A stretch of DNA of 64,000 nucleotides from a virus, in IMG/VR virus record IMGVR_UViG_3300020048_000003. One strand, 5' to 3'. Of this stretch, positions 15,563-63,241 are shown piece after piece (the first letter of the stretch is position 1; every line of letters starts with the position of its first letter). Both the position numbers and the translations under genes were made by a program. Below the pieces are notes generated by a model that saw nothing but the letters and a program-made list of their open reading frames with translations, did not search any database and was not told the DNA's origin.

Positions 15563-15882
15563 CAATCAAATATTTTTCTGATATTTTTAATTTTCTCTTT
15601 TCGTTGTTCACCAATATTCACAAAATAGATATTTACATGACTTTCCACCCAAAGAGTACATTCATTTTTTATTCTCTTATTCCTCTCAATTTCACCTAAT
15701 TGATTAATCTCAGTATAATATCTTCTCTGCTTAGGTGTTTCATCATTTGAAATGTAATAAGCACCTTTTTCATTAATATCAATAATTTGATATCTTAAGC
15801 CTAATGTATATATAGGTGTGCTAACATATTGCCGTGGTGGCATTTCCTTAATTAAGGTCAAAAAATCTCCTACTTTATTCAT
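15559..15882 (-). CDS. Fam-B small protein (tail [10 protein letters not shown]), VGDFLTL barrel
   Basis: Tail. Confidence 0.6.
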
Positions 15883-16868
15883 TTTAAATCGTGTAACATC
15901 ATTATTTTTACTAGTTCTTTAAATTTAACTTTTGCTTCCCAACCTAATATGGCTTTGGCTTTTGTAGGATCACCTAATAATAAATCAACTTCGGTTGGTC
16001 TAAAGTATTTTGGATCACTTTCAACAACAATTTTACCTGTTTTTTTATCTACTCCTATATCATTTGAAAGCCAATTAATTTCAACATCAATATATTTACA
16101 TGCTTCTTCTATAAATTCCCTAACAGAATGACATTCTCCTGTTGCTAAAACAAAATCATCTGGCTCATCTTGCTGAAGCATTAAATACATACCATATACA
16201 TAATCTTTTGCATATCCCCAATCTCTTTTAGCATCTAGATTACCAATCTTTATAGTTTCACCAGTTTTTTTCCAATTTGCCAAACCTCTTGTTATTTTTT
16301 TGGTAACAAAAGTTTCTCCTCTTCTTTCACTTTCATGATTAAATAGTATACCATTAGAAATGAATAAGTTATAGCCTTCACGATAATTTCTAGTCATCCA
16401 AAAAGCATATAATTTTGCTACTCCATAAGGTGATCTAGGATAGAATGTTGTTTTTTCATTTTGAGGTACTTCTTGTGCTTTTCCATAGAGTTCACTTGTT
16501 GATGCTTGATAAATTTTGGTATGTGGAGAGTAGTTTCTAACTGTTTCTATTAATCTTAAAACTCCCATTGCATCAACCTGTCCAGTATATTCTGGTAATT
16601 CAAAACTAACCTGTACATGTGATTGAGCAGCAAGGTTATATATTTCATCAGGTTTTACTTTTTGAATTATGTGTTCTATTGATAATGTATCTGTTACATC
16701 TCCATAATGTAAATGGAGTTTTGGATAAATATGATCAATACGACTAGTATTAAATGAACTTGATCTTCTTATAATGCCATGTACTTCATATCCTTTATCA
16801 AGTAATAATTCAGCAAGGTACGAACCATCTTGTCCCGTAATTCCAGTAATTAGTGCAATTTTTTTCAT
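15879..16868 (-). CDS. gmd: GDP-mannose 4,6-dehydratase
   Basis: [48 protein letters not shown] is near-identical to the bacterial Gmd N-terminus. Confidence 0.9.
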
Positions 16869-19222: not shown

Positions 19223-19226
19223 AATT

Positions 19227-19454: not shown

Positions 19455-19463
19455 ATCATTATA

Positions 19464-21347
19464 TTATTTTTTAAATGTACTTATAGTATCAATTACAACT
19501 CCCTTAATTTCTTCTTGTGAAATTAGTTTTAATTTTGATATTTCTAACATTCTATTAAATAGTTCTGGATTCATATTTGACCGACCAGCAACATTCTTTT
19601 TTGATTCTATATTTCCATCAAAAAAGAATGAATGATGTATATAGCCTACTCCATTTGGTTTAAGTACTCTATAAATTTCACTCAAATAATTCTGAATAAC
19701 AAATTTATCCATATGAACAAAAGAATCCCAAGAAAAAACAAAATCCAAAGATTCATCTTTAAAATCGCTAAGACTTTTACCATTATTTATTGAATATTTT
19801 TCAATATAGTTACCAAACCTTTCTCTGCATTTTATAATACAATTCTCATTCAAATCAACAACACTAAGGTTATTTGTATATTTAAGCAAATATGTTGTTA
19901 TTCTACCATGTCCTGGCGCAATCTCTAAAACATTTCCTTTTATATAATCTTTAATTTTTGGATAGATAATTTCATTCCAAACTTTTTCTGTACCACCAAA
20001 AACATCTGACCATTCTTCACCATCTCTTTCCCATTCTGAATCATTATTCCAGAATTTTTGTTCTTTTGTATTATCATATACTTCAGTTTTTTCAATTTTA
20101 ACTTCTTTATTATGAGTTGATTTTAGAATTTCATATGCCTTTTTTGCTGAATTTTCCCAAGAAAATTCTTCTCTTATGAGTTCTGAATCTTTGATTGCTT
20201 TTTCTTTATATTGCCAATAGTTTATATAAACATCTCTCATAACTCTTGATAAGTCATGAAAATCTGGTTCTATATAATTACCAACTGAATTTGGAATTGG
20301 TTTTTCATCTAACACATTGACTGGATGACCTTTACCACTTGCAAATTCTAATTGACCACTCCAATTTGAATATATTGATGGTGTACCACAAGCCATAGCC
20401 TCTATAAGAGGTAAATTCCAACCTTCTGATCTTGCACAAGATAGAAATACATGACCATTTCTTAAATAGTTTATATAATCTTCTCTTTCAAGAAAATGAA
20501 GAACTTTTAATCTATCATCTTTAAAGTTGAATTTTTCTAATCTCTCTTCGGTAGTTTTCATTCCATCTACGGCATAATCAGCATTATCCACAGCTAAAAT
20601 TAAGTCAACTGGCTCGTTATTTTGAAATGTTTTAAGAAAGGTCTCAATGATTTCTTTGGTCGCTTTACGATACTCCCAACGACCTATAAGTATAAATTTA
20701 AATCTATTATCTTTATACAAATCTAAATTTTGATTAAAATAATCTGGTGAGAATATTTTACCGTCAACTGCTTCAGGTACTACATAAATTTTATCAGATG
20801 GATATCCTTGTTTTATAGCACATTCTTTCTGCCATTTAGAAGGAACCCATAGTTGATCAAATTTTTTAAGTTTTTCAAAAAAATTATCTTCGTATCTTGT
20901 TGATTCCCAGACATTATATGCTATTTTAGTTCCTTTATATTTTTCAATAGAATTAAAATAGTGATGATTTGTTTCACTTAGAACTATATCTATTATATCT
21001 TCTTGTTTGTATTCATTAAGATAAGTAAGTCCATCATTAACAGGATAATCACATATTCCAGAATCATATCTATTTTTTTCACTTTTACCACAGTAAAGTG
21101 TTTGCTCACATATTAGATTTCTTTGATAATCAGTAAGGTATGTTTCATTTTTATGTGGATCTCCATAAACACCTTTAGAATCAATTGTACCTAAACCATT
21201 CCAAGTTTTTCCAACTGTAAAATTTTTAACTTTTACTGGTGTTAGATGGCTTAGAGCAGTAAAAAAATCTCTTGCATGTGCATTATATCCTGTGTGTCCA
21301 ACGAAACTTGTATTACCTTTTACAAAAAAATTATTATTGATTTCCAT
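19464..21347 (-). CDS. Bifunctional glycosyltransferase (GT4-like) with a C-terminal class I SAM methyltransferase
   Basis: EGWNLPLIEAMACGTP (EX7E) in the N-terminal half; VLEIAPGHGRIT...LKPNGVGYIHHS in the C-terminal half. Confidence 0.7.
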   Translation of the reverse strand: MEINNNFFVKGNTSFVGHTGYNAHARDFFTALSHLTPVKVKNFTVGKTWNGLGTIDSKGVYGDPHKNETYLTDYQRNLICEQTLYCGKSEKNRYDSGICDYPVNDGLTYLNEYKQEDIIDIVLSETNHHYFNSIEKYKGTKIAYNVWESTRYEDNFFEKLKKFDQLWVPSKWQKECAIKQGYPSDKIYVVPEAVDGKIFSPDYFNQNLDLYKDNRFKFILIGRWEYRKATKEIIETFLKTFQNNEPVDLILAVDNADYAVDGMKTTEERLEKFNFKDDRLKVLHFLEREDYINYLRNGHVFLSCARSEGWNLPLIEAMACGTPSIYSNWSGQLEFASGKGHPVNVLDEKPIPNSVGNYIEPDFHDLSRVMRDVYINYWQYKEKAIKDSELIREEFSWENSAKKAYEILKSTHNKEVKIEKTEVYDNTKEQKFWNNDSEWERDGEEWSDVFGGTEKVWNEIIYPKIKDYIKGNVLEIAPGHGRITTYLLKYTNNLSVVDLNENCIIKCRERFGNYIEKYSINNGKSLSDFKDESLDFVFSWDSFVHMDKFVIQNYLSEIYRVLKPNGVGYIHHSFFFDGNIESKKNVAGRSNMNPELFNRMLEISKLKLISQEEIKGVVIDTISTFKK

Positions 21348-38498: not shown

Positions 38499-39020
38499 AT
38501 GAAACATTTAAAAACATACGAAGGAAGAGAATTAAATAAATATGAACGTAAGGTTATTTATAAACATTTAAATAAAAATGATTCTCTAAAATTAGAAGAA
38601 CATATTGAAAAATATGTTCTTGATAATAATATTATAGGTAAAATATCCAAATTAAAATTGAAAGATTATACTTCAAATTCTTTGGATTATGATTCTCTTT
38701 GGGAATCTGATATTATTTCATCTGGTATGTATGATGAACCAACAAATATTTATCGTGTTTGTGATGAATTTTGTTTTAATAATTGTGAGGTTGTTGGAAG
38801 AACAAATACACCAGCTGTACGAAATACACTTTCTGATATTTCAAAAAAATTATATAAAAAATATAATGTAAGAGATAAATTAAATAAACAACTTATAAAA
38901 CTATTAGAGAAAAATCCTCCAAATTATAGAGATTTTTATGAAACTTGGGAAGAAGAATTAACAAACGAAGTAAGATTAGCATGTCAATATATGCTGGATT
39001 CAGAAAATTATAATCTATAA
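38499..39020 (+). CDS. Fam-A protein (MKHLKTYEG...SENYNL)
   Basis: Termini. Confidence 0.7.
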   Translation: MKHLKTYEGRELNKYERKVIYKHLNKNDSLKLEEHIEKYVLDNNIIGKISKLKLKDYTSNSLDYDSLWESDIISSGMYDEPTNIYRVCDEFCFNNCEVVGRTNTPAVRNTLSDISKKLYKKYNVRDKLNKQLIKLLEKNPPNYRDFYETWEEELTNEVRLACQYMLDSENYNL

Positions 39021-39114
39021 TGAAATACCTTAAGAAAAAAATAAGTGCAAACAGATTAACGTCAAAAGAAAGAGTAGAGTTTGAATATCAAAGAAATATA
39101 AGGAAATATAATTT

Positions 39115-39579
39115 ATGAAATTTTTAAAAGTTTTTGAAGAATACAGAGTTTATAATCATAAACTATATATTGATCATGTTATGGAAGAAGAATTAAAAGT
39201 AGAAATTCAATATCCAGAAGATTCTATTGTTATACCAGAAAGTAAATATGATATTGATGTTATAGAATATTTCAAAGAAATATTTTTAGATAAATATATT
39301 ACATTTAAGAGTGTAGATACACCCAAAGGACACCCACAAATGCAAGGTTTTGTTTTAGATGTTGATCAACTTGCGTATCAAGATGAATTTTATATTAGAG
39401 TTAAATTAGCACAGGCAGTATATTCAGAATTTCCAGAGTGGCTTGGTCATAATAATTTAGATGATTGGTATTTAATAAATAATACAAAACCAGTACTTGT
39501 ACAACACTATGATGCTGATACTAAACCATTACATAAAGAAGTAGAATTTAAAAAAGAGGCAGGAAGATATAATTTATGA
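39115..39579 (+). CDS. Fam-A protein (MKFLKVFEEY...GRYNL)
   Basis: Termini. Confidence 0.7.
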   Translation: MKFLKVFEEYRVYNHKLYIDHVMEEELKVEIQYPEDSIVIPESKYDIDVIEYFKEIFLDKYITFKSVDTPKGHPQMQGFVLDVDQLAYQDEFYIRVKLAQAVYSEFPEWLGHNNLDDWYLINNTKPVLVQHYDADTKPLHKEVEFKKEAGRYNL

Positions 39580-40079
39580 AATATATTAAAACATTTGAAA
39601 ATAAAGAACTAAATCTTCATTTAATGATGTGTGATTTTTTATCTAAAATAAATGATAAAGAATATTTAGTTACTAGATTTTTTTATTATAGAGGTATGAC
39701 AGAGGGTAATACTTTAGCATTTAAAAGATATGAAAATTATCCCCGTGTTAATACATATCCTATTTTTTCAATTACATTTAAAGATGTAAATGACACAAAA
39801 TTACGAGGTGTTGCAAATAAGCCAAAGATGAAAGTTATTGTAAATTATGAATATGATATGGCTGGTGTTAAGGATGTTCAGTTCGTTACAATGTTGAAAG
39901 ACTTTATTGTTGATGTGTTTACAAAATATTCTTATTTTCATAAAAAGCGTGATAAATATTATAGAAAAGATTTTTGTAGTCATGATTTCTATATTAATAC
40001 ATCTGAAATTTCAAATATTATGAATGATTTTGAGAATGAATTTGATTTTTATGTTAATACAAGAAAATATAACTTATAA
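39576..40079 (+). CDS. Fam-A protein (MKYIKTFE...TRKYNL)
   Basis: Termini. Confidence 0.75.
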   Translation: MKYIKTFENKELNLHLMMCDFLSKINDKEYLVTRFFYYRGMTEGNTLAFKRYENYPRVNTYPIFSITFKDVNDTKLRGVANKPKMKVIVNYEYDMAGVKDVQFVTMLKDFIVDVFTKYSYFHKKRDKYYRKDFCSHDFYINTSEISNIMNDFENEFDFYVNTRKYNL

Positions 40080-40339
40080 TGAAATATATTAAAACATTTG
40101 AATCTGATAAATATACTTTTGGTGAGTATGTTATGTTTTTTAATAAGATGAAACGTTTAGATGAGTTAGATGGACTATTGTGGGACAAACTAGAGTTAGC
40201 AGAAATTCTTGCGTTAGATTCTGATAGAGATGAATATTATATTGAGATAAAAGAAGATGGTGATGAACTTTGGGTAGGTGCTGACCAAATTCGTAAATTG
40301 ACTGATTTTGAAAAAGATACATTAAAATATAATTTATGA
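40079..40339 (+). CDS. Fam-A small protein (MKYIKTFE...TLKYNL)
   Basis: Termini. Confidence 0.75.
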   Translation: MKYIKTFESDKYTFGEYVMFFNKMKRLDELDGLLWDKLELAEILALDSDRDEYYIEIKEDGDELWVGADQIRKLTDFEKDTLKYNL

Positions 40340-40653
40340 AACATATAAAAACATTTGAAAGTAGTTCTGATGATAGAAAAAAAGCCGAAGATGAATTTGT
40401 AGGAAAATTATATAAAATATATCCTACACATAATCCAAGTGAAATGATAGCTATAGCAAAATGTGTAAGTATATTAGGAATGCATAGTAATTGGGGTGAT
40501 TTTGAAGGTTATATTATTCACCCACCAATGTCTAAAGGTAGATTTTATGCAGATTCTGAATTTTTAAATGGAATTGGTAAAGAAAATGAAGTAAGTAAAG
40601 AAGATATTGAAGAATATGAATTATATAATACAATGAATAATTATAACCTATGA
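40336..40653 (+). CDS. Fam-A small protein (MKHIKTFE...MNNYNL)
   Basis: Termini. Confidence 0.75.
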   Translation: MKHIKTFESSSDDRKKAEDEFVGKLYKIYPTHNPSEMIAIAKCVSILGMHSNWGDFEGYIIHPPMSKGRFYADSEFLNGIGKENEVSKEDIEEYELYNTMNNYNL

Positions 40654-41150
40654 TAAAATTATTTGAATCTTATTCGTTAAAAAGTGATATAGAAGAACTT
40701 TCTAGTGCTATACTAGATTTATCTAAAAATGTTTTTAAAGATATTAAACCAAAACCTTTTGGTGTTTGCTCTTGGATAAGTATTCCTGTTTGTCAATTTT
40801 CACTTTATTATAATAGTCAAACAATATTTTATTGTATTATGGAAATATCTAAAGAAATGGATAATGAATTTGCAAGAAATCAATTTAACGGACAGATACC
40901 AGATGAATATTATACACAAGATATTACTATCAAAATAATTAGGCAATATCCTTTTAATACAAAGTTTATTGAACCTTTTTTTAACTATTTAAGATATATA
41001 GTATTATCAGTTAGTGAAGTTACAAATAAGAGGATATCTTCTACTAGTTTTATTAGTTCAATAAAACAGGAGAATGTTAAAGAAATTATATCAAAGTTAA
41101 ATATAGAAGATTATGAACTTTGGTTAGAAGCAAGTAAATACAATTTATAA
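40650..41150 (+). CDS. Fam-A protein (MIKLFESY...ASKYNL)
   Basis: Termini. Confidence 0.7.
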   Translation: MIKLFESYSLKSDIEELSSAILDLSKNVFKDIKPKPFGVCSWISIPVCQFSLYYNSQTIFYCIMEISKEMDNEFARNQFNGQIPDEYYTQDITIKIIRQYPFNTKFIEPFFNYLRYIVLSVSEVTNKRISSTSFISSIKQENVKEIISKLNIEDYELWLEASKYNL

Positions 41151-41318
41151 ATCAATCATCTGATTTTCAACTATCAAATATTGCATTTTTGTACCTTCAA
41201 AGATTATAGAACAATCTTTTTTCTTTGCTTTATCAAGGTTCTGATACATAAAAACTTTAGTAATTTTAAGTTTCTGTAAATCATCCAATTGGCTATATTT
41301 TTTAGTAGTTTTTTCCAT
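41145..41318 (-). CDS. Unlisted 57-aa ORF (MEKTTKKYSQLDDLQK...) with a promoter motif 3 nt upstream
   Basis: Hand translation; its TTA stop abuts the TAA of the convergent Fam-A gene. Confidence 0.35.
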   Translation of the reverse strand: MEKTTKKYSQLDDLQKLKITKVFMYQNLDKAKKKDCSIIFEGTKMQYLIVENQMIDL

Positions 41319-41334
41319 AGCACAAAGATAGACA
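41319..41334 (-). promoter_or_regulatory. Conserved promoter element (GTCTATCTTTGTGC) adjacent to the ATG
   Basis: gcacaaagatagac. Confidence 0.45.
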
Positions 41335-41381
41335 TTTTTTCTGACTTAAAAAATTAATTTTCATTTTTTATATATAATAAT

Positions 41382-42422
41382 ATGAAATATATTAAAGAGT
41401 ATAAAATATTTGAAAGAAAAGGAAATTATCAGTTATTTCATAAAACTAACGAATATGCTCTAAATCTTATTGTTAATAGTGGTTTTATAAAATGTGGTGG
41501 TGATTCAAATGATGATGAAGATGATTACAAATGGTGGAATTATGGATTAAGAAAAAATGTTTTTTCTGATTGGAAGCAAGATGATAAAAAATTCAAAACT
41601 ATCTCAGCGACAAGAAATTTAGATTATCTTTGGTTGCCAGCATTAGAATTAGATGTTGAAAAAATTTCAGATAAATATAGAATTGTACCATTTAGTGAGA
41701 ATCCAGATTATTATTTAGATTTTTATGGTGGTGATGATGGATTTGCTAGTAGTGGTGAAAAATATGGAAAAATGAAATCTAGAAAAAATCCTATATTACC
41801 ATTAAAAAATAAGAAGAAATTAACTAATTTTCAAAATATGATAAGATCAAAATCAAAAGATGCTGGTAAATTATTTTGGAGATTTAAGACAGATAAAGAT
41901 GTTATGGATTATGGTATAGCAGAAGAGTTAATTCTTACTGATAAATTAGATTTCGGAAAATATGTAAAAAGAGTAATTTTGAGAAAAGATTTTGGAAATG
42001 AAAATGAAAAATTAATTAAACTAATTAATAAAAAATATCCTAATGTTGAAGTTGTTGAAATTGATAGAAGAAATAGTGGTGGTTTCAATTATATGGATGT
42101 TAAAAGAGTATCTAAACAGAAAGAAAAAGAAAAAGAATTAGCATTACAAGAAAGCAAAAAACCTATACCAGAATATAAAAAAGGTGATTATGTTCATTTA
42201 GAAGATGATGAAACTTGGACAGTTTATCAAACCGCAAAAGTAATTAGTTTAAATTCAAATGTTGATTTACAAAATAATGATTATTATATAGAAGCATTTT
42301 TGAAACAAAATAATAAACCTGTTGAATTTTGGGTTGATGATTACGATATAGATAGAAAATCTACAAATGAAGAAATTGCAGAGTTAGAAATAATAAAAAA
42401 TGCAATTAAATATAATTTATGA
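41382..42422 (+). CDS. Fam-A large member (346 aa; MKYIKEYK...IKYNL)
   Basis: Termini; C-terminal STNEEIAELEII helix. Confidence 0.7.
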   Translation: MKYIKEYKIFERKGNYQLFHKTNEYALNLIVNSGFIKCGGDSNDDEDDYKWWNYGLRKNVFSDWKQDDKKFKTISATRNLDYLWLPALELDVEKISDKYRIVPFSENPDYYLDFYGGDDGFASSGEKYGKMKSRKNPILPLKNKKKLTNFQNMIRSKSKDAGKLFWRFKTDKDVMDYGIAEELILTDKLDFGKYVKRVILRKDFGNENEKLIKLINKKYPNVEVVEIDRRNSGGFNYMDVKRVSKQKEKEKELALQESKKPIPEYKKGDYVHLEDDETWTVYQTAKVISLNSNVDLQNNDYYIEAFLKQNNKPVEFWVDDYDIDRKSTNEEIAELEIIKNAIKYNL

Positions 42423-42814
42423 AATATATAAAATTATTTGAGAATCAAGATAATATTGATATTTGTAAAATGTTATTGAGTCACTTGACAAATACTTTTG
42501 AAGAAATTGGTTACGATTACAATAATTATCTTGTTTATGGTTTATATGAAACAGAATTTGATAAAAATAAAGAAAATTTATTCAAATTTATATATGATGC
42601 TCATACTAAACAATTTTCAATAAGATTATTTGATATGGCAGATGAAGTATTATTTATACCAGAATATTTTAAAACTATTACAGGATTAAAATTTCAAGAT
42701 ACTAAGTATTTTAATAGATATATTTATGATATTATAGATATTGATAAAGCAATTGAACAAATATCAAAAGAAGATTTTGAATTAAAATTTACATCAAATA
42801 AATACAATATATAA
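42419..42814 (+). CDS. Fam-A protein (MKYIKLFE...SNKYNI)
   Basis: Termini. Confidence 0.75.
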   Translation: MKYIKLFENQDNIDICKMLLSHLTNTFEEIGYDYNNYLVYGLYETEFDKNKENLFKFIYDAHTKQFSIRLFDMADEVLFIPEYFKTITGLKFQDTKYFNRYIYDIIDIDKAIEQISKEDFELKFTSNKYNI

Positions 42815-42845: not shown

Positions 42846-43955
42846 TTATTGTCCTCTACCATATAATACTGTAAAGAAAGTCTTAAAGAATATTTTTATA
42901 TCTTGAGTAATAGACCAATTATTAATGTAATCCATATCTAACTGCATCCAATCATCAAACTTTATATCATTTCTATTTTTTTGAATTTGCCATAAACAAG
43001 TTATACCAGGTTTTGTTAACAATCTTAAAAAATATTTCTTTTTATACTTTTTAATTTCTTCTTCTAACGAAGGTCTTGGACCAATTATGGACATATCACC
43101 TTTTAAAACATTAAGAAATTGTGGAAATTCATCAATGCCAGTTTTTCTTAAAAAAGATCCAATATTTGTTATTCTTGGGTCTTTTTTTATTTTAAAAACC
43201 GGACCATCTGCCTCATTTAATTTCATTAAGTCCTTTTTAATATCCTCGGCATCAGAAACCATAGTTCTAAATTTATATAAAGTAAATTCTTTACCATGTA
43301 GACCTATTCTTTTTTGCTTGAATATAATAGGACCTTTTGATGTTAGTTTTATTAATAATGCAATAACAAAAAGAAAAGGTGCTGACAATAAGAGAATAGA
43401 AAAAGATAAAATCATATCGGTTATTTTCTTTTTTCTCAAATCACACATAGGTAACAATTCAATATCTTTGTGATAATTTATTCTTGATATTAATTTTTTA
43501 GCAGTTCCTTCCCTACCACTAATTAGAAAATTTTCAGTCATTGTACTATTTTCAATGATTTCAGGATTTTTAATTTTTTCTTTTGCACAACTACCATCAC
43601 TTAATACATTTTTTACACTTTCTAGTAATTGTTCTGAATGAACAGGTTTTTCTATATAATCACACGCACCTAATTGCATTGACTTGATTATCAATGGTAC
43701 TTCATCATAACCAGTAAACATAATTACTGGTATAACATAATTGCTTTTAATATATTTTAGAATTTCAATTCCTGACATACCACCTGGTATATCATAATCA
43801 GTTATAATTAAATCTATATTAGAATTTTTTAGTCTTTCAATTCCTATTTCACCGGAAATTGCGGTATATACTTTGTACCCGTTATCTTTTAATGTTTTTT
43901 TCACTAACATTAAAATTATTTCATCATCATCTATAAGTAAAATTGATTTTTTCAT
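42846..43955 (-). CDS. Response-regulator receiver (REC) domain fused to a bacterial sugar transferase (WbaP/WcaJ/PglC-type polyprenyl-phosphate hexose-1-phosphate transferase)
   Basis: ILLIDDDE...DLIITDYDIPGGMSG...MFTGY is a REC domain. C-terminal TM plus RIGLHGKEFTLYKFRTM...GPRP is the sugar-transferase signature. Start set at MKKSILL (43955); the longer ORF-track N-terminus is translated terminator hairpin. Confidence 0.8.
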   Translation of the reverse strand: MKKSILLIDDDEIILMLVKKTLKDNGYKVYTAISGEIGIERLKNSNIDLIITDYDIPGGMSGIEILKYIKSNYVIPVIMFTGYDEVPLIIKSMQLGACDYIEKPVHSEQLLESVKNVLSDGSCAKEKIKNPEIIENSTMTENFLISGREGTAKKLISRINYHKDIELLPMCDLRKKKITDMILSFSILLLSAPFLFVIALLIKLTSKGPIIFKQKRIGLHGKEFTLYKFRTMVSDAEDIKKDLMKLNEADGPVFKIKKDPRITNIGSFLRKTGIDEFPQFLNVLKGDMSIIGPRPSLEEEIKKYKKKYFLRLLTKPGITCLWQIQKNRNDIKFDDWMQLDMDYINNWSITQDIKIFFKTFFTVLYGRGQ

Positions 43956-44020
43956 ACTAGCTATATTAGAATTTGTATTGTTGCAATGATAAGGAATAAT
44001 TTTTAAAATAAAAAATAAAA

Positions 44021-44046
44021 AGAGCCAATTTGGCTCTTTTTTTGCT
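44021..44046. terminator. Bidirectional intrinsic terminator
   Basis: aaaaagagccaatttggctctttttttg. Confidence 0.7.
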
Positions 44047-44072
44047 ATCAGGTTCATTTGAATATCGCATTT

Positions 44073-44681
44073 TTATTTTTGAAATAAATTCTCTTTTACA
44101 TCAGTTGAAGCGTAATATGCTGTTGCTTTTGAAATATTTGCATAAGCAACGGTTATACCTTCATTTGTGGCTGCGTAATCAAACGCATTACTCCTGTCCA
44201 TACCCATCATTTCTGCTTCAAAAGCAGAATCTTGATTTGCACCTAAATAAATAAATTCAGAATTAAATTCTTCTCTCATGTGAGTTACTAATAATTTAAT
44301 TGATTGTTTATGATAAACTGTAGAAGCATTTTCACCACCATCTGTTATAATAACAAATAATGATTTATCACTTCTATCTTCTTTTTTTATTGATGCTAAA
44401 TTATCTAAATAATCATCAATCATTTTTCCTATAGCATCATACAAAGCGGTCATACCACAATGGTAATAAGTTTTTTCATTAACTTTTTTTACTTTTTGTA
44501 TATTCACTTGATTATATGGCATATAAAAATTATCATCAAAAAATAACAATGAGAAATTTATTTTATTATCACTATTTTTCTGGTCTTTCAAAAACTGATT
44601 GAAACCTTCTCTTGCCTTTTCTATAATAGAACCCATAGAACCGGACATATCTAATATACAAATTATATCTATCTTTTTCAT
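44073..44681 (-). CDS. von Willebrand factor A (vWA) domain protein
   Basis: ILDMSGSMGS is a MIDAS DxSxS motif; the later ITDGGEN also fits. Confidence 0.75.
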   Translation of the reverse strand: MKKIDIICILDMSGSMGSIIEKAREGFNQFLKDQKNSDNKINFSLLFFDDNFYMPYNQVNIQKVKKVNEKTYYHCGMTALYDAIGKMIDDYLDNLASIKKEDRSDKSLFVIITDGGENASTVYHKQSIKLLVTHMREEFNSEFIYLGANQDSAFEAEMMGMDRSNAFDYAATNEGITVAYANISKATAYYASTDVKENLFQK

Positions 44682-44695: not shown

Positions 44696-45754
44696 TTAGA
44701 TTAAATGACTTCCACATTTTGGACAAAATTCCCAAGTATTCTTTCTGATTCTATAACCACAATGAGTACAATATTCTCTTACTTCTTTTATTGTACGATT
44801 CATTGTTGAGATTGGCATAATCTTATATGTCATTGAATGAAAAGGTAAATCAGCAAATTGTAAATTTACTCCTTTTAATGTTTGTCTTGAAGTGTCGCCT
44901 TTTTCTATTCTACCAGTTTCTAAAGGATCATAAGTTCTGCTATTTTTATTTATAACATCAAATTCAGAAAATGAAGAATTGATATAATCATTATAATCAA
45001 TAGATTTATCTGTATTTTCACAAAGATATTCAGACCAAGCAATACTTGATTCTAAGTTTGAATTTAGATAATTTGAATATGTATTTGTTGTATTTGTTGT
45101 ATAAGTTGATGATGTTGTTGTACCACCACCTGTTGTATTAATAGTTGTATTAATGTTTGTGAAATGTGGTAAACCAGCACCTCCACCTGAACCAGAGAAT
45201 CCTGCAGGTCCAGCACAACCTTGTATACCTGATACTCCTGAACTACCTGATGTTCCTGATGTTCCAGAGGTACCTGAAGATCCAGAATAACCAGAAGTAC
45301 CTGATCCCCAAGCCATACCTTTATTTTTATAAGGTTTAGGAGGTTTAGGTGGAAAACTATACTTAATGTTTACTTCTTCATTATAAGTACGGTATGAGTG
45401 TCTTTCTTTAAAAAAGTTGAAAGAAATTACTCCGTTTTCTTCTATTGCTTTAACAGCCGCTTCATTATTACCATTAACAACATAAGTTTCAAATAACATT
45501 TTACGTTGTTCATCTAAGAAGCGATCTAATATTATATCTTGCCCTGGATTTAGGACTAGATAACCATCTCCTTTATTTATACCATTGAAATTAATTTGTA
45601 CTCCAATTTTTTCAGGTAAAGGATTAAAAAACCTTAGTTCAAAGTTATCACCATCGTTTAGAAAAACGGTGTTGTCTTGATATAACTTTAACTCATTGCG
45701 ATTGCTTGTAATCACGACCGATGGAGCACGGTCTAGCATTTTGTAGTGTGTCAT
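44696..45754 (-). CDS. Protein with a Gly/Ser/Thr-rich collagen-like low-complexity core and a C-terminal zinc ribbon
   Basis: WGSGTSGYSGSSGTSGTSGTSGSSGVSG...; C-terminal CTHCGYRIRKNTWEFCPKCG. Confidence 0.55.
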   Translation of the reverse strand: MTHYKMLDRAPSVVITSNRNELKLYQDNTVFLNDGDNFELRFFNPLPEKIGVQINFNGINKGDGYLVLNPGQDIILDRFLDEQRKMLFETYVVNGNNEAAVKAIEENGVISFNFFKERHSYRTYNEEVNIKYSFPPKPPKPYKNKGMAWGSGTSGYSGSSGTSGTSGTSGSSGVSGIQGCAGPAGFSGSGGGAGLPHFTNINTTINTTGGGTTTSSTYTTNTTNTYSNYLNSNLESSIAWSEYLCENTDKSIDYNDYINSSFSEFDVINKNSRTYDPLETGRIEKGDTSRQTLKGVNLQFADLPFHSMTYKIMPISTMNRTIKEVREYCTHCGYRIRKNTWEFCPKCGSHLI

Positions 45755-45946: not shown

Positions 45947-46438
45947 ATGAAATACTATAAACAAGAAAAAAACTATACTTGTGGCGTTGCTTGTCTTCGT
46001 ATGGTTCTTTCTGCTCAAGGTTTACCAGATATAGATGAAGATACATTAGAAGAAATGATTGAATGTGTTCCAGAATCTGGAACTCATTATAAATCAATGG
46101 TTTCATTTGCTGATAAATTTGATTTAGATTGTATATCTCATGAAGGTGGTACAGTTGAAGAAATAGATGAATTAACTAAGCAAGGTTGGAGTGTAGTAGT
46201 TGCATATAGTGTTGATGTTCCTCACTTTGCGTTATATGAAAAATGTAACGACAATCATTTATTTTTATGTGATCCTTTCTTTGGTGAACATGTTGCACAC
46301 TTAAAAAAGAAATTTGCAAGAGTATTATGGCAAATAGATGTTTCAAGATATAAATTTGCAATTGCCGAAATGGATTTGAAATTAGATAAATCATTAGATA
46401 CTAAATGTTGGTATGTTGCTTATAAACAAAAAATATAA
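45947..46438 (+). CDS. C39-like papain-fold cysteine peptidase domain protein
   Basis: YKQEKNYTCGVACLRMVLS (Gln...Cys) with a downstream His (VPHFA) and Asp (CDP). Confidence 0.6.
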   Translation: MKYYKQEKNYTCGVACLRMVLSAQGLPDIDEDTLEEMIECVPESGTHYKSMVSFADKFDLDCISHEGGTVEEIDELTKQGWSVVVAYSVDVPHFALYEKCNDNHLFLCDPFFGEHVAHLKKKFARVLWQIDVSRYKFAIAEMDLKLDKSLDTKCWYVAYKQKI

Positions 46439-49186: not shown

Positions 49187-49534
49187 TTGATGAAAATAAA
49201 AAAGTTCAATCAAATTAACGAAGCATCTGAGGATGATGTTGATAAACATATAATTATAACGGTTAGTATGAAAGACGAATTCCAATGTACTTTAGCTGAT
49301 ATCAAAGAAACAACAGCTTATTGGAATCATTTAAAATATATACAAGATAAAAATTTTAATGAAACTGATGAAGAGATAGAAAGACAAGCTGTTTATTATG
49401 GATTAGAGGAATATTGTTATAATCAAGGTAAGGGTGGATTTTCTTATAATTTTGTAGATAATGCTGGCAATAAAATTGAAAATTTAGATACATATAGAGA
49501 ATTTATAAAAGATACAAAAAAATATAATATATGA
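49187..49534 (+). CDS. Fam-A protein (..KIKKFNQINE...TKKYNI)
   Basis: C-terminal motif; starts an 11-gene array. Confidence 0.65.
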   Translation: MMKIKKFNQINEASEDDVDKHIIITVSMKDEFQCTLADIKETTAYWNHLKYIQDKNFNETDEEIERQAVYYGLEEYCYNQGKGGFSYNFVDNAGNKIENLDTYREFIKDTKKYNI

Positions 49535-49818
49535 AAATTAGAAAATTTTTTGAGCAATATGAGTTAGATGTTGATGGTGATGGTGGTATAGCAGAAGAAT
49601 ATGTCAAATTAATAATATCAACATATATTGATAAACAACATTTGGAGCATGTTACTTTAGAAAAAGTGTATAGAGATGTTGTAAAAGGTGACGACTTAGA
49701 TGAATCTCAATGTGAAATAATAAGAGATGAATTAAAAATATACATTACATTTCTATTAAGATATGCTAAACAAATTAGAAAAATATTTGAAATAGACGCT
49801 GAGGATTATAACTTATGA
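49531..49818 (+). CDS. Fam-A-like protein (MKIRKFFEQYE...AEDYNL)
   Basis: Termini. Confidence 0.65.
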   Translation: MKIRKFFEQYELDVDGDGGIAEEYVKLIISTYIDKQHLEHVTLEKVYRDVVKGDDLDESQCEIIRDELKIYITFLLRYAKQIRKIFEIDAEDYNL

Positions 49819-50150
49819 AACATTTAAAATTATTTGAAAAAAAAGGAAAATTTGAAGTAGAAATTAAAGAATCACTAAAAAAGTTTTGTGGTGAATTTGG
49901 TTTTTTTGATTATGAATATAACTATTATACTTATACGAAGGTGACAAACATTTCATTTAGAATTACAGGTAAAATAAATCAAGAAAATGAAAAAAAATTT
50001 AATGAGGTACTTAATTTTATTAAAAATTATCATAATTGGGAAATAACACCATATATGAATACATTTCGTGTATTTTTTTGTCCGACAGATCCAGAACAGT
50101 TTTTAAATGATTTAGAAACTATTATATCAGCAAAAATTTATAATTTATGA
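49815..50150 (+). CDS. Fam-A protein (MKHLKLFE...AKIYNL)
   Basis: Termini. Confidence 0.7.
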   Translation: MKHLKLFEKKGKFEVEIKESLKKFCGEFGFFDYEYNYYTYTKVTNISFRITGKINQENEKKFNEVLNFIKNYHNWEITPYMNTFRVFFCPTDPEQFLNDLETIISAKIYNL

Positions 50151-50476
50151 GATATATTAAAACATTTGAGAAAAAATATGTAGAACCTTTTAGAAGAAAT
50201 AGAAAAAAAAATGGTCCGAAACCAAAATTTAATGTTGGTGATGAGGTTATTGTTATGTATGATTTAACACAATTTGGTTACCCATATGGGATCGTAAAAG
50301 GTGATATCGTTACAATAGTTGATTATTGGATAAATGCAAATGATGATATATCATATAAAATAGATAGTCCTAAACTTCGTGAGATAAAAAAAGGTAGAGA
50401 CATAGAATATGATATGTTTGATGAATTTCATTTCGCGTATGAATATGAAGAAGATGCAAATAAATATAATTTATGA
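50147..50476 (+). CDS. Fam-A protein (MRYIKTFE...ANKYNL), VGDEVIVMYD barrel
   Basis: Termini. Confidence 0.75.
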   Translation: MRYIKTFEKKYVEPFRRNRKKNGPKPKFNVGDEVIVMYDLTQFGYPYGIVKGDIVTIVDYWINANDDISYKIDSPKLREIKKGRDIEYDMFDEFHFAYEYEEDANKYNL

Positions 50477-50796
50477 AATATATTAAAACATTTGAAAAAA
50501 GATATAAACAAGAGGAGGATTTTGAAATTCCAGATGGAACTAAATTGTTGTGTGTTAGAAGTGATTACCATATGTTTAAGGTTGGTGATATTGTAGAAAT
50601 GAATTATTATAAAGCATATGGTGGTGTTGGATATTATTCTGGTATATCAAAAAATAATACAACTTATAGTGCTACGGTTATTGATGCAAATACAGTTCTA
50701 TTGGATAAATATCAAAGTACAGATGCGACTTTCACAACAGATGCTACAATAGAAGATTATAAATTAAGAAAAGCAACGGAGAAATATAATTTATGA
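50473..50796 (+). CDS. Fam-A protein (MKYIKTFE...TEKYNL), VGDIVEMNY barrel
   Basis: Termini. Confidence 0.75.
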   Translation: MKYIKTFEKRYKQEEDFEIPDGTKLLCVRSDYHMFKVGDIVEMNYYKAYGGVGYYSGISKNNTTYSATVIDANTVLLDKYQSTDATFTTDATIEDYKLRKATEKYNL

Positions 50797-51233
50797 AATA
50801 TATTAAAATGTATGAAATAAAGAGTTTAGAAAAAAGAACTGACATTTTTGCTGATGCTGTCAAAAATGATAAGAAAGCTTTGATTAATAAGATGATTGAT
50901 AATGATATTAATCAAAATGAAGGAGAATTTATATTAATAGCAGTGATTTATAATGATGAGAAGATTTTGAAAAAATTAATAAAAAAAGGCGTTGACTTAA
51001 ATGCATTAACTCAAGCAGGATATTCGCCATTAATTTTTACTGCTATTCAAGGTTTTCATAGTTGTATGAATACACTTATAGAAGCAGGTGCAGATTGGAA
51101 TATTATAGATGATAGTGGACATGATTTTTTAAGATATTTACCATCTTATTTAAGAAATAAAACAATAGAAAAATATCCAGAGCAATATAAAGAATATTTA
51201 TTTAGAAAAGAATCAGAAAAATATAACTTATGA
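50793..51233 (+). CDS. Fam-A protein with ankyrin repeats (MKYIKMYE...SEKYNL)
   Basis: KKGVDLNALTQAGYSPLIFTAIQGFHSCMNTLIEAGADWNIIDDSGHDFL is an ANK repeat pattern. Confidence 0.75.
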   Translation: MKYIKMYEIKSLEKRTDIFADAVKNDKKALINKMIDNDINQNEGEFILIAVIYNDEKILKKLIKKGVDLNALTQAGYSPLIFTAIQGFHSCMNTLIEAGADWNIIDDSGHDFLRYLPSYLRNKTIEKYPEQYKEYLFRKESEKYNL

Positions 51234-51562
51234 AATATATTAAAACATATGAAACTATAAATATTCCTTCATCACGACCGAGTGATGCGTGGCTTAATGT
51301 ATATACTGATTATAGAGTAGGTGACATTGTAAAAATTTGGAACGAATTTTATGCTGGTGAGATAGTTTATTTGTGCCGTTCATATGGCGGAAGATATACT
51401 AGTCATGATGTTAAAGGTATTATGAATTATGATGGTTCATTAAGAAATGGTGATATAAAGACGATAGATGAAGAATATATGAGAAAATTAGATCCTAATG
51501 AGTTGAAAGGATTTAAAGATTTGTTAAGTATGCACGATGATGTAAAAAAATATAATTTATGA
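51230..51562 (+). CDS. Fam-A protein (MKYIKTYE...VKKYNL), VGDIVKIWN barrel
   Basis: Termini. Confidence 0.75.
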   Translation: MKYIKTYETINIPSSRPSDAWLNVYTDYRVGDIVKIWNEFYAGEIVYLCRSYGGRYTSHDVKGIMNYDGSLRNGDIKTIDEEYMRKLDPNELKGFKDLLSMHDDVKKYNL

Positions 51563-51819
51563 AATATATTAAAATATATGAAATGAAAAAACAAAAACCA
51601 AAATTTTCTGTTGGTGAGAAGGTGGAATGTATTTTCTCTAGATGGGGAAATCTAAAGGAGGGTGAAATATATGAAATTGAAAGAATTACTTGGTCTAGAA
51701 GAAAAGGTAAATTTGTGTGTAAATTAAAAGGTGTTGGTGCAGATGATGAGTATTCTTATTTTTCAGAGAATAATTTTATTAGTGAACTTGAACATGATAT
51801 GAAAAATTATAACTTATGA
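51559..51819 (+). CDS. Fam-A protein (MKYIKIYE...MKNYNL)
   Basis: Termini. Confidence 0.75.
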   Translation: MKYIKIYEMKKQKPKFSVGEKVECIFSRWGNLKEGEIYEIERITWSRRKGKFVCKLKGVGADDEYSYFSENNFISELEHDMKNYNL

Positions 51820-52250
51820 AATATATTAAAACATTTGATAATACTAGTCAGAAATTAGAAGATATTAAAAAACTTCAATTGTCTAAACTTGCTATTTTTA
51901 AATTTTCAAAAAAAATAAACGAATTATTTCAAAAACATTATAATGTATCAACAATATTAAGAGAAGAAGATTCAAATCACCACCAAATAAAAAATAGATA
52001 TGATATATCTGATAGTGTTTTAAAAAGAAAAACATATTTTTCAATTTCAATTACACCTAATTATAAAATAGATATTTTTCCTCTTAGTGTAAGCAACGAT
52101 TTAGAAAAATTTTTTATAGAATTTTTTGATTTGGATTCACAAAATTATAGTATAAGAATATTCTGCACTTCAGAAGAATTGAATGATTATTGCGATATAA
52201 TTGTTGATGAATTTGATTTGTATGTTGCCACAAAAAAATATAACTTATGA
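51816..52250 (+). CDS. Fam-A protein (MKYIKTFD...TKKYNL)
   Basis: Termini. Confidence 0.75.
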   Translation: MKYIKTFDNTSQKLEDIKKLQLSKLAIFKFSKKINELFQKHYNVSTILREEDSNHHQIKNRYDISDSVLKRKTYFSISITPNYKIDIFPLSVSNDLEKFFIEFFDLDSQNYSIRIFCTSEELNDYCDIIVDEFDLYVATKKYNL

Positions 52251-52687
52251 AATATTTACATTTATTTGAAAATCAAAATGAATCATACCCTTATGAATGG
52301 GAAAATATTGTTCAAAAAGGTAACAAATTATATATTTATGTCTATGAATTAGCAAACGAAATGGAAAGTGATGTTGCTGGAAAAGGTAAAGAAGAATTAG
52401 TTAAAATGGAACATACTTATTATAAGTTAATTAGAAATTTATTAATTGGTAAAGTTATAACCTTTGACTGTGAAGAATGTTCAATTGAACATACTGGTAT
52501 TTGTGATACCGTAGGTTTTTCTTCTGGACGTTATGAAGAAGGATCCGATGATACATTTCAAGTTCAGTTTGTACATATATCAACAGAAGATATAGATGAC
52601 CAGCATAATATTGAAGATGAAGAAATAATTGTTCACTTAGACATTGATCCTGAAACTTATAGAACAGCAAATAAATACAATTTATAA
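52247..52687 (+). CDS. Fam-A protein (MKYLHLFE...ANKYNL)
   Basis: Termini. Confidence 0.75.
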   Translation: MKYLHLFENQNESYPYEWENIVQKGNKLYIYVYELANEMESDVAGKGKEELVKMEHTYYKLIRNLLIGKVITFDCEECSIEHTGICDTVGFSSGRYEEGSDDTFQVQFVHISTEDIDDQHNIEDEEIIVHLDIDPETYRTANKYNL

Positions 52688-52695
52688 TATAATTT

Positions 52696-53010
52696 ATGAA
52701 ATATATACTGGAAATGAAACATATGAAATCTGCAATTTATTATAGTGATGGATCCGCTTATTATGAGGACTATAATGACATGGATGAATTTGATTTAGAG
52801 ATAGTTAAAAATTATAAATTTAGAATAGGTGATTGTGTTAGAATAAACGACACTATTGTTGTATATAAAATATTAGCAGTTTCTCCTGACTCAAAGTATC
52901 AATATAAAATTGGAAGATACGATCAAGGATTTGGTACAAATAGAATAGAAGAAAAAGATTTAGTTCCAATATCAGACTTTGAAAGAAATATAATGAAGTA
53001 TAATTTGTAA
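52696..53010 (+). CDS. Fam-A protein (MKYILEMKHMK...IMKYNL), IGDCVRIND barrel
   Basis: Termini. Confidence 0.7.
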   Translation: MKYILEMKHMKSAIYYSDGSAYYEDYNDMDEFDLEIVKNYKFRIGDCVRINDTIVVYKILAVSPDSKYQYKIGRYDQGFGTNRIEEKDLVPISDFERNIMKYNL

Positions 53011-53296: not shown

Positions 53297-53608
53297 TTAT
53301 AAATTATATTTATCTGCAATATCTTCCATTTCAATTTTGAATCTTGTTGATTCCCAGCCCTTTGAAATTTCACCCGTTTCAATATTTTCAACATCAACTC
53401 TTAAAAAATCATTTTTAAGAAAAATATCTTCTCCTAATCTGTATATTTTTATGACTTTAAATTTATCTCCGATTTCTAATACATGCTTCACACTACCTTT
53501 TATAGTTGACATATATCCAGTATCTCTTACACAGACTACAGTATCACCAACACCATAATCAATAAGTTGACCTGTTGTATATAATTCAAATAATTTTAAA
53601 TATTTCAT
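53297..53608 (-). CDS. Fam-A protein on the minus strand (MKYLKLFE...ADKYNL), VGDTVVCVRD barrel
   Basis: Termini; first gene of a 6-gene inverted array. Confidence 0.75.
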   Translation of the reverse strand: MKYLKLFELYTTGQLIDYGVGDTVVCVRDTGYMSTIKGSVKHVLEIGDKFKVIKIYRLGEDIFLKNDFLRVDVENIETGEISKGWESTRFKIEMEDIADKYNL

Positions 53609-53611
53609 ATT

Positions 53612-53971
53612 TTATAAGTTATATTTTTGTCCTTCTATTGCAATATCTATTTCATCTTTGTTGGCAAACCTTATATAAGCATCAAACCCATTTGGTGTTT
53701 TACCACATTGAAGAATCCAATAATTATCTAGTACCCAACCAATTTTATTTAATTTTAAAAAACTCTTTTTAAGTTTAATAATTCCTTTTAATACTTCATC
53801 AAAAGTTCCTCTTGTGTTATGTGTCTCATTTTTTATACCATTTACTGTATATGTATATCTACTTAAATAATCTCTTTCACCTGGTGCGAATAAATCATCA
53901 GAATCATATTCTTGAATTTGAAGTCCGTGTTTAATCCATTCAACTTCTTCAAATAATTTTAAATATTTCAT
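53612..53971 (-). CDS. Fam-A protein (MKYLKLFE...GQKYNL)
   Basis: Termini. Confidence 0.75.
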   Translation of the reverse strand: MKYLKLFEEVEWIKHGLQIQEYDSDDLFAPGERDYLSRYTYTVNGIKNETHNTRGTFDEVLKGIIKLKKSFLKLNKIGWVLDNYWILQCGKTPNGFDAYIRFANKDEIDIAIEGQKYNL

Positions 53972-54321
53972 AAGTTATATTTATTTGTTTCTTCAAGAAA
54001 TTTGAATTTTTCAATTTCTTCTTCTGTTGCTGGTCTTAATATTTTTACATCTGACTTTACCTTTATAATTTCTCTCATACCATCTAAATCAAATATTTGC
54101 TCTATAAAACTTATCTTTGTATGTCCTTTTGCTTCTAATAATAATATTTTATAATAAAAACCATCAGCACCGTAATATTTACCAGTTGTAAATTTTTCTA
54201 ATTTCATTATACAATCAAGCATATCATTCTTATATCTCCAATATGTATTGTTTATAAAATCAGATAAAGATATTTCATCTGGCGTTTCTAAAACTATTTC
54301 AAATGTTTTAATATACTTCAT
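53968..54321 (-). CDS. Fam-A protein (MKYIKTFE...TNKYNL)
   Basis: Termini. Confidence 0.75.
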   Translation of the reverse strand: MKYIKTFEIVLETPDEISLSDFINNTYWRYKNDMLDCIMKLEKFTTGKYYGADGFYYKILLLEAKGHTKISFIEQIFDLDGMREIIKVKSDVKILRPATEEEIEKFKFLEETNKYNL

Positions 54322-54659
54322 AAGTTATATCTTTTTGCATCTTGTTTAAATTTGAATTCTTCAATTCTATCTTTAAATTTTTCAATTTCAGCAGGATAAG
54401 CATGTCTTATCCAACTATTTATTTTCCATGGGTCTGCATCATCAACAACAAAACTATATTGCCAACCTTTTAAATATGTCAAAGTATATTTTTTATTATA
54501 TTTTGTATGTTGCTTAATGCTAGTTATTTGTGCTGGTTCATATAGGACTAAATTTTTTAAATGTGTACCAACATTCACATCATCTAAATAAACCCAATCC
54601 CCAACATTGAATTGAGTTGAATTTTCAAAATTTTCAAATATTTTAAAATTAGTTATCAT
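54318..54659 (-). CDS. Fam-A protein (MITNFKIFE...AKRYNL), VGDWVYLDD barrel
   Basis: Termini. Confidence 0.7.
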   Translation of the reverse strand: MITNFKIFENFENSTQFNVGDWVYLDDVNVGTHLKNLVLYEPAQITSIKQHTKYNKKYTLTYLKGWQYSFVVDDADPWKINSWIRHAYPAEIEKFKDRIEEFKFKQDAKRYNL

Positions 54660-54976
54660 AAATTGTATTTATTTGCATGTGTAAATACCTCTATATCTTC
54701 TTTTTCTGATGAATATTTTAATATTTCATCACTATTAAACCAAGTTGGATTTGCAAAAGTATAGCTTCTATCAACACAATCCTCATCAAATTCTACTAAT
54801 ATTCTAAATTGTAATGGGATTTTATTAGTTATTTTAATATCAAGTACTTTTCCTATACTAACACTTAGATAACTATTATATAAAGGATCAAAATAATCCT
54901 CAGCATCAATCAATACATAATCACCAATCTCTAATTGTTTATCTACTTCCGCTTCAAATAATTTAATATATTTCAT
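54656..54976 (-). CDS. Fam-A protein (MKYIKLFE...ANKYNL), IGDYVLID barrel
   Basis: Termini. Confidence 0.75.
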   Translation of the reverse strand: MKYIKLFEAEVDKQLEIGDYVLIDAEDYFDPLYNSYLSVSIGKVLDIKITNKIPLQFRILVEFDEDCVDRSYTFANPTWFNSDEILKYSSEKEDIEVFTHANKYNL

Positions 54977-55437
54977 ATATTATATTTTTTTGCATCTTTT
55001 TTGATTTGAAAATTTTCAATATCTGATTTAATTTCTTCTTTTACTTTTTTTACTTTTTTAATAAATTTTTTTGTCTTGAAATCATAATTCTCATTCTCAT
55101 TAAATTCTATATTTTCAACCTGTTCAACAAATTTAGTAAAATCATCTGTTACAAATATAATATTACATTCGTGAACAAATAGAGTCAAAGGTTCTAAATC
55201 AGGTTCGTGTTCATTATTATGTGCTAATTCCTTTAATTCTTTTTCATTTAGATCTGATAATAGTTTTATCAAAAATACTTTTCTATCATCATAAATGTAA
55301 TCTGTATAATTTTGAACTACAATACCATACAAATGAAACCAAAAAACATTATCTTTACCGGTATTATCGCCTAAGATAACATATTGACCTTCTTTTATAT
55401 TGTATAGTTCAAATTCAAATAATTTTAAATATTTCAT
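54973..55437 (-). CDS. Fam-A protein (MKYLKLFE...AKKYNI)
   Basis: Termini. Confidence 0.75.
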   Translation of the reverse strand: MKYLKLFEFELYNIKEGQYVILGDNTGKDNVFWFHLYGIVVQNYTDYIYDDRKVFLIKLLSDLNEKELKELAHNNEHEPDLEPLTLFVHECNIIFVTDDFTKFVEQVENIEFNENENYDFKTKKFIKKVKKVKEEIKSDIENFQIKKDAKKYNI

Positions 55438-63222: not shown

Positions 63223-63241
63223 ATTTGAGAATGGTTTTGGA

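Follow-up and report, generated by a model that had tools for sequence, protein, structure and literature searches.

A receiver domain and a predicted priming phosphoglycosyl transferase in one polypeptide of a probable huge phage

That the first committed step of bacterial surface glycan synthesis can be controlled post-translationally has been demonstrated only recently. In Myxococcus xanthus, the phosphorylated free receiver EpsW~P activates the priming phosphoglycosyl transferase (PGT) EpsZ, as was shown experimentally in 2025 (PMC12802240); the DifE kinase feeds EpsW, which is a protein of its own, and the transmembrane and cytoplasmic domains are retained in EpsZ (PMC12802240). Here we describe a gene in which a receiver (REC) domain and a predicted priming PGT domain are carried by the same polypeptide. 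This REC-PGT gene lies in a 64,000-nucleotide stretch (hereafter, the window) of a 286,618-bp contig, the IMG/VR virus record IMGVR_UViG_3300020048_000003, which we regard as coming from a phage. Like the EpsW/EpsZ system, the gene product brings together a receiver and a priming PGT, and its catalytic domain scores 255 bits against the Myxococcus EpsZ model (NF041877). Unlike that system, the receiver and the enzyme are in a single chain, the N-terminal domains of the enzyme are gone, and no kinase was found in the 84 kb that were searched around the gene.

Receiver-fused small monotopic PGTs are also known in bacteria, where they were catalogued by O'Toole, Imperiali and Allen (PNAS 2021), as cited in PMC12802240. 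The phage protein shares with these fusions the combination of a receiver and a PF02397 domain in one chain; according to the account in the citing paper, the bacterial fusions are biochemically uncharacterised. As far as that account describes them, they differ from the phage protein, which is viral, is an orphan and has a catalytic domain closest to the large WbaP/EpsZ-type enzymes. The concept and the receiver-PGT architecture are already known, and the idea is less new than a preliminary description of this DNA implied, because fusions were already reported from bacteria and a response regulator has been shown to control a PGT in trans (PMC12802240). What is new is the viral carrier, the orphan status, a catalytic domain that derives from large PGTs, and a natural series of receiver-less relatives.

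Three other systems are close enough to be compared. Salmonella WbaP and Campylobacter PglC have the catalytic core, the predicted re-entrant helix, the Asp-Glu dyad, the PRP motif and the fold in common with the phage protein; at the N-terminus, WbaP has four transmembrane helices and a PF13727 domain, PglC has nothing, and neither has a receiver. The Anabaena protein All4160 (STAS + Bac_transf) is regulated by phosphorylation and controls envelope polysaccharide (bioRxiv 10.64898/2026.04.08.717354). It likewise joins an N-terminal module of a phospho-regulated type to a PGT, in this case a small one; however, All4160 is cellular and its STAS domain is phosphorylated on Ser by partner-switching kinases, whereas the phage protein is viral and carries an Asp-type receiver. 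On the Chondrinema litorale plasmid NZ_CP111049.1 (5860-7004), a 142-aa receiver gene (WP_284687757, response regulator) overlaps the start of a small PGT gene (WP_348970684, sugar transferase, annotated with a non-ATG start) by 40 nt. This is a similar functional pairing, found there within a Bacteroidota exopolysaccharide cluster. Unlike the phage protein, the Chondrinema pair occupies two reading frames inside a full glycan cluster with regulators, and its identity to the phage protein is only ~35%. The pair could be a frameshifted receiver-PGT fusion, or it could consist of translationally coupled or separate genes.

Structure of the REC-PGT gene and its product

The longest open reading frame (ORF) at the locus runs from 42846 to 44057 on the minus strand and encodes 403 aa from its first ATG. 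We consider the ATG at 43955 (MKKSILLIDDDE) to be the biologically likely start, giving a product of 369 aa, because three homologous genes each open with the internal sequence MKK(S)ILLIDDDE and because the 34 additional N-terminal codons of the longer ORF overlap a terminator-like hairpin (44041..44017). This start agrees with the extent given to the gene in the preliminary description. The identical protein is encoded on contigs from three data sources (the 286,618-bp contig, the 209,136-bp contig k141_278361 of ENA ERZ27262924 and a 7-kb contig), and two homologues (P0002 and P0003), 74-76% identical, share the 369-aa layout with a receiver and PF02397 in one polypeptide; on these grounds, a frameshift or an assembly chimera was excluded. 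A terminator scan found four hairpins where 0.3 were expected. Because terminator-like hairpins flank the gene on both sides (Table 1), it is predicted to be a single-gene cassette that forms its own transcription unit. The 60-bp gap upstream of the gene gave no sigma-70-like promoter.

The receiver matched Pfam Response_reg (PF00072) with an E-value of 2.7e-27 (95.6 bits against a cut-off of 30.2), and it aligned to Spo0F (6ifh), PhoP (1mvo) and other solved receivers at 1e-16 to 1e-18. In the alignment to Spo0F and PhoP, D10/D11 with D9 form the acidic pocket and D53 (codon 43797..43799) occupies the phospho-acceptor position, while T81 and K103-P104 lie at the ends of beta4 and beta5, respectively, and Y100 takes the aromatic switch position. 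The three fusion proteins differ at ~35% of the receiver positions but share every one of these residues. The sole departure from the solved receivers is one additional residue in the beta3-alpha3 loop (PGGMSG). The AlphaFold (AF2) model of this domain has five strand-helix units, (beta-alpha)5, with a pLDDT (per-residue model confidence) of ~90, and Foldseek superposed it on the Spo0F, YycF and MicA receivers with a TM (template modelling) score of 0.93-0.95 and a root-mean-square deviation of 1.0-1.3 A. The ratio of nonsynonymous to synonymous substitution rates (dN/dS, Nei-Gojobori) was 0.23-0.29 for the receiver and 0.11 for the PGT domain, so that both are under purifying selection. By sequence, the receiver is canonical and maintained, and not a decayed pseudo-receiver. 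The preliminary description had likewise called the N-terminal 120 aa a canonical receiver, and the alignment confirms the acceptor Asp and the Lys on which that view depends.

The C-terminal half is a predicted monotopic PGT. It matched Pfam Bac_transf (PF02397) with an E-value of 2.4e-67 (226.4 bits against a cut-off of 27), aa 176-365 aligned to Salmonella WbaP (8t53, 1.3e-45) and Campylobacter PglC (8e37, 5.5e-26), and Foldseek also returned the PglC fold (TMt 0.74). The basic motif K228-F-R230-T-M, the catalytic dyad D275-E276 within IDEFPQ (codons 43128..43133) and the PRP motif G292-P293-R294-P295 are all present; K228/R230, D275-E276 and P293-R294-P295 match invariant columns of 30 large PGTs and are invariant in the three fusions. 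The predicted re-entrant helix is hydrophobic at aa 180-204 and spans 170-205 in the AF2 model. Its Pro193, at the helix-break position, aligns with the WbaP Pro and is invariant in the three-fusion alignment and in the 30 large PGTs (where it equals P296 of P0008). The residue before this Pro is Ala in the window protein, which reads S-A-P with the Ser displaced by one, against S-S-P in the homologues. The sugar transferase assignment made earlier for this half stands, and the motifs then quoted for the two halves (LLIDDDE, ITDYDIPGGMSG, MFTGY, KFRTM and GPRP) are all found in the protein, to a degree that chance cannot explain.

Among NCBIfam models, the best were TIGR03025 (EPS_sugtrans; 286.5 bits, below the cut-off of 295.55 and covering model positions 253-443 only) and the EpsZ model mentioned above, and both matched the catalytic part only. 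The top models (EPS_sugtrans, EpsZ, WcaJ and WbaP) are hexose-1-phosphate transferases, and these matches are only suggestive of a hexose-1-phosphate specificity in the phage enzyme. Pfam did not match PF13727 in the phage protein, and the N-terminal architecture of the large PGTs, that is, four transmembrane helices and PF13727, was not found. The catalytic domain is derived from the WbaP/EpsZ large-PGT family, and the protein is not a member of that family by architecture.

The way in which the two domains are joined is informative about how the fusion may have been built. Profile-profile homology (hhalign) to the large PGTs begins at residue 155, ~20 residues before the membrane helix, and the segment of aa 155-175 has a 7-residue deletion relative to the WbaP/EpsZ-type large PGTs. 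The linker that precedes it (aa 121-154) gave no Pfam match even at E<=10; it carries TENFLISGxEGTAK, the best-conserved stretch of the N-terminal half in the three-fusion alignment. Because the large-PGT homology begins at 155 and aa 121-154 match nothing, the N-terminal part of a large PGT (four transmembrane helices and a cytoplasmic alpha/beta domain) seems to have been exchanged for the receiver and a novel linker.

Two other origins of the linker were considered and rejected. The nearest receiver match, P0123, is an NtrC-type sigma-54 activator, from which came the idea that the linker motif FLISGREGTAKKLISRINYH is a remnant of the Walker A region of such activators; BLAST against P0123 aligned the receiver alone, and Pfam gave no match in the linker. 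A PF13727 remnant in aa 121-154 was also rejected, as the BLAST extensions were nearly without identities and the hhalign homology began only at residue 155.

Table 1. Features of the REC-PGT gene, its flanks and candidate glycan partners (positions in the window)
Feature	Position	Strand	Basis
REC-PGT gene, complete (369 codons + stop at 42846..42848)	42846..43955	minus	ORF list, two-domain Pfam match, homologue starts
Receiver (REC) domain, aa 1-120	43596..43955	minus	Pfam, alignments, AF2, Foldseek, dN/dS
Lineage-specific linker, aa 121-154	43494..43595	minus	Conservation, no Pfam match, outside the hhalign match
Pre-helix segment, aa 155-175	43431..43493	minus	Homology to WbaP/EpsZ-type large PGTs directly ahead of their membrane helix
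Predicted re-entrant membrane helix, aa 176-205, ITDMILSFSILLLSAPFLFVIALLIKL	43341..43430	minus	Alignment to the WbaP membrane helix
Predicted PGT catalytic core, aa 206-369	42849..43340	minus	Bac_transf, WbaP/PglC alignments, Foldseek, dN/dS
Intrinsic-terminator-like hairpin ending the upstream VWA gene	44017..44041	minus	Terminator scan
Bidirectional terminator-like hairpin directly after the REC-PGT stop codon	42815..42844	both	Terminator scan
GDP-mannose 4,6-dehydratase, candidate glycan partner	15879..16868	minus	Pfam GDP_Man_Dehyd 2e-141
GT4-methyltransferase fusion, candidate glycan partner	19464..21347	minus	Glycos_transf_1 1.3e-12 + Methyltransf_25 4.8e-13

Distribution of the fusion and its phage carrier

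Homologues that share the full length of the protein are rare. In a search of 5.8 billion clustered proteins, the full length was common to three clusters only (P0001-P0003). Among 1.84 billion 50% representatives, only one of the best 150 matches was a fusion, and no bacterial fusion was among these 150; such searches rank by the PGT domain, and distant fusions could be missed by them. Matches in two stretches in the same search were not accepted as fusions, since Pfam identified either duplicated PGT domains or large PGTs in them, and the three matches with at least 80% coverage in a plasmid search were all large PGTs with weak extensions. In the GenBank phages, tblastn gave no match that covered at least 80% of the query, and megablast of 25 kb found nothing. 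Pattern scans found no relative in IMG/VR and no full-length relative in the GTDB species genomes that were reached.

When the receiver and linker were used as the sole query, only 11 generic response regulators were retrieved, at 32-42% identity, and no fusion was returned. By this comparison, the receiver of the phage protein seems to be without a close source. The closest cellular relatives of the catalytic half are WbaP-like large PGTs (PF13727+PF02397) of Bacteroidales and others, which show ~60% identity in that half only. Given that no bacterial fusion was retrieved and that the nearest receivers are generic regulators at such identity, these results suggest a separate fusion event, independent of the bacterial fusions.

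In a neighbour-joining tree of the catalytic domains, the three fusions were sister to P0004-P0006. P0004 (271 aa) opens with MKKILLIDDDEM, exactly as P0002 does, and has no more of the receiver than this; the local score of this receiver remnant was 78, against 30 +/- 5 for shuffled sequences. P0005 and P0006 have no recognisable receiver. The contigs that carry P0004 have a GC content of 25-26% and PHROG matches to a peptidase (6e-72), a membrane protein (2e-80) and PhoH (5e-62), and the contigs of the relatives have no other gene in common with the window. Probably, the fusion is ancestral to the P0004 lineage, in which the receiver was then lost and the enzyme was kept. Since the receiver-less sister proteins keep the enzyme, the receiver does not appear to be required for catalysis.

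The cellular affinity of the catalytic domain introduces the question of whether the REC-PGT gene is simply an ordinary bacterial exopolysaccharide gene, located on a cellular contig or carried as a recent passenger, for which the phage context would be irrelevant. The ~60% identity to the Bacteroidales enzymes fits this explanation, as does the result that no capsid or terminase gene was seen among the window ORFs scanned. However, PHROG matches in the window include an endolysin (5e-40), a virion structural protein (8e-25), an RNA ligase (4e-78) and HNH endonucleases; the RNA ligase has matches in many jumbo phages and the endolysin in a Flavobacterium phage. In addition, an 809-aa ORF is ~50% identical to unannotated genes of the uncultured huge phages LR756500/501/503 (462-735 kb). 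The window has no tRNA and contains ~45 tandem small paralogues, and the GC content near the gene (24%) is like that of the rest (23-32% throughout the window, 25% for the contig). The GTDB result given above and the phage-like contigs of the relatives also argue against a cellular gene. We therefore consider this explanation highly improbable, and of the two origins that the preliminary description had allowed for, a phage or a mobile element, that from a phage is upheld.

A Shine-Dalgarno (SD)-like motif was found within 20 nt upstream in only 7 of the 103 ORFs of the window, a scarcity that agrees with the SD-independent initiation known from Bacteroidota. Replication in Bacteroidetes has been predicted for huge phages above 634 kb (PMC7162821). 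Based on the Bacteroidales affinity of the catalytic domain, the few SD motifs and the huge-phage literature, the element is probably a huge phage infecting Bacteroidota.

Proposed regulation and its alternatives

We propose, with moderate confidence, that the gene encodes a functional phage-borne response regulator of one polypeptide, whose output is a priming PGT. Its C-terminal domain would be held in the inner leaflet of the host cytoplasmic membrane by the re-entrant helix, and the enzyme would transfer hexose-1-phosphate from a UDP-sugar to undecaprenyl phosphate (Und-P), yielding Und-PP-hexose in the first committed step towards a surface glycan. The phosphate on D53 would come from a host histidine kinase or from acetyl phosphate, and the phosphorylated receiver would alter the output of the enzyme. 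Most simply, the receiver may be an inhibitor that is released by phosphorylation; such relief of inhibition by a modulator is favoured because the receiver-less relatives keep the enzyme. Alternatively, phosphorylation may drive the receiver to dimerise, so that it takes over from the dimerising cytoplasmic domain of WbaP-type enzymes; this would be a cis version of the action of EpsW~P, which promotes the active dimer of EpsZ (PMC12802240).

The probable purpose would be to tie the start or diversion of envelope glycan synthesis to the physiological state of the host, and possible aims include receptor masking, the exclusion of other phages and the drawing down of the Und-P pool. Jumbo phages are known to carry surface-polysaccharide clusters, for which surface remodelling or superinfection exclusion has been proposed (PMC7824862). 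A broader scenario may also be drawn, in which a huge phage taps the two-component or acetyl-phosphate signalling of its host to time or sabotage glycan synthesis, and in which the fusion arose independently in the phage lineage, when a receiver took the place of the membrane and dimerisation domains of a captured Bacteroidota WbaP-type enzyme. We offer this only tentatively, as a doubtful extension of the proposal.

The search for kinases covered ORFs of at least 90 aa in the window and the called genes in 10 kb past each end, that is, 84 kb of the 286-kb contig. It turned up no HisKA, HATPase_c or Hpt domain, as the preliminary description had already stated for the surroundings of the gene with respect to histidine kinases. 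A 467-aa ORF (23955-25358, minus strand) seems to contain a protein-kinase-like domain duplicated in tandem, with two copies each of a glycine-rich loop (GSGDFG / GGGGYG) and of DFHxGNLGW; its weak Pfam match is to the ABC1 atypical kinases (2.2e-5), and it is not a histidine kinase.

Several of these results count against the proposed regulator. With neither a kinase nor a phosphotransfer protein in the 84 kb around the gene, the receiver is an orphan there. No flippase, polymerase or adjacent glycosyltransferase was seen with the REC-PGT gene, and 21-27 kb separate it from the nearest sugar genes. The arrangement of the two domains is not confidently predicted, as the linker was modelled at low confidence (pLDDT below 55) and the full-length model had a pTM (whole-model TM confidence) of 0.49. 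Finally, that sister lineages have lost the receiver could mean that regulation is dispensable.

Some of the same observations raise the possibility that the receiver is independent of phosphorylation and serves, without any signalling input, as a constitutive dimerisation or scaffold module in place of the N-terminal domains of WbaP-type enzymes. This would account for the lack of a kinase in the 84 kb and for the existence of receiver-less sisters. The receiver also occupies the place of the alpha/beta cytoplasmic domain of the large PGTs, and that domain mediates the dimerisation of WbaP (PMC12802240). However, D9/D10/D11, D53, T81 and K103, which are needed solely for phosphoryl chemistry, have remained invariant despite the ~35% divergence of the domain, and the dN/dS of the receiver is likewise at odds with this alternative. 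Pseudo-receivers usually lose some of the residues of phospho-chemistry. We consider a phosphorylation-independent receiver unlikely and retain the phosphorylation-responsive regulator as our proposal.

The genetic surroundings raise another possibility, namely that the enzyme traps Und-P as a dead-end Und-PP-sugar and in this way stops host capsule, O-antigen or cell-wall synthesis, with the receiver acting as a timer. The gene stands alone between terminators, and no glycosyltransferase, flippase or polymerase adjoins it; this would fit such a role, and Und-P is limiting and common to several pathways (PMC12802240). On the other hand, the GDP-mannose dehydratase and the GT4-methyltransferase protein of the window (Table 1) could extend a primed lipid, and the latter also has a PHROG glycosyltransferase match (1.8e-36). 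We regard the trapping of Und-P as distinctly improbable. The two candidate partners belong to a loose cluster of sugar and methylation genes (13637-22864), in which there are also an N4/N6 DNA methylase (16865-17647), a Methyltransf_24 / sugar-O-methyltransferase-like ORF (17629-18414) and a NUDIX ORF (22277-22864). The product of the sugar-O-methyltransferase-like ORF is a third candidate glycan partner.

To our knowledge, the receiver-PGT fusions found in sequence databases have so far not been subjected to experiment. The phage protein is a convenient object for this, being a single chain of 369 aa with natural receiver-less relatives as controls. If a host kinase does phosphorylate the receiver, the protein would be an example of a virus that uses host two-component signalling for envelope remodelling, and it would bear on phage receptor masking and on capsule-dependent phage susceptibility in Bacteroidota.

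Other genes of the window

The window is densely packed with short overlapping ORFs. About 45 of the 103 ORFs are members of a single tandem family of paralogues, with an N-terminus like MKYIKLFE and a C-terminus of KYNL/KYNI, for which no Pfam or PHROG family was reported. Its members are found at 449-3851(+), 34807-37350(+), 38499-42814(+), 49187-53010(+) and 53297-55437(-), and are otherwise scattered. At the junctions, the stop codon of one member overlaps the next start in a conserved AAATATAATTTATGA, which includes TATAAT.

The genes beside REC-PGT encode a VWA-domain protein (44073-44681), a protein in which collagen-like GTS/GSS repeats are combined with a C-terminal zinc ribbon (44696-45754) and, transcribed divergently, a C39-like peptidase (45947-46438); no link between these neighbours and the PGT is evident. 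Further along, the segment 60220-63303 (minus strand) encodes a cadherin-domain protein (60220-61095) and a TPM-phosphatase-domain protein (62506-63303), and a LemA-family match probably comes from the adjoining 198-aa ORF (61098-61694).

The 809-aa ORF that resembles huge-phage genes (30777-33206, minus strand) has the major-vault-protein domains MVP_shoulder (1.3e-27) and Vault_3 (8.8e-10), and the vault-protein-like gene seems to be conserved among huge phages. The RNA ligase (PF09414) is encoded at 6124-6744 on the minus strand, and a separate ORF of the window carries the cyclic-phosphate-processing receiver cREC_REC (PF20274, 4.2e-17). RNA ligase and cREC are associated in the RNA repair of jumbo phages (PMC7824862). 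The cREC_REC ORF provides a second receiver-like domain in the window, of a non-two-component kind.

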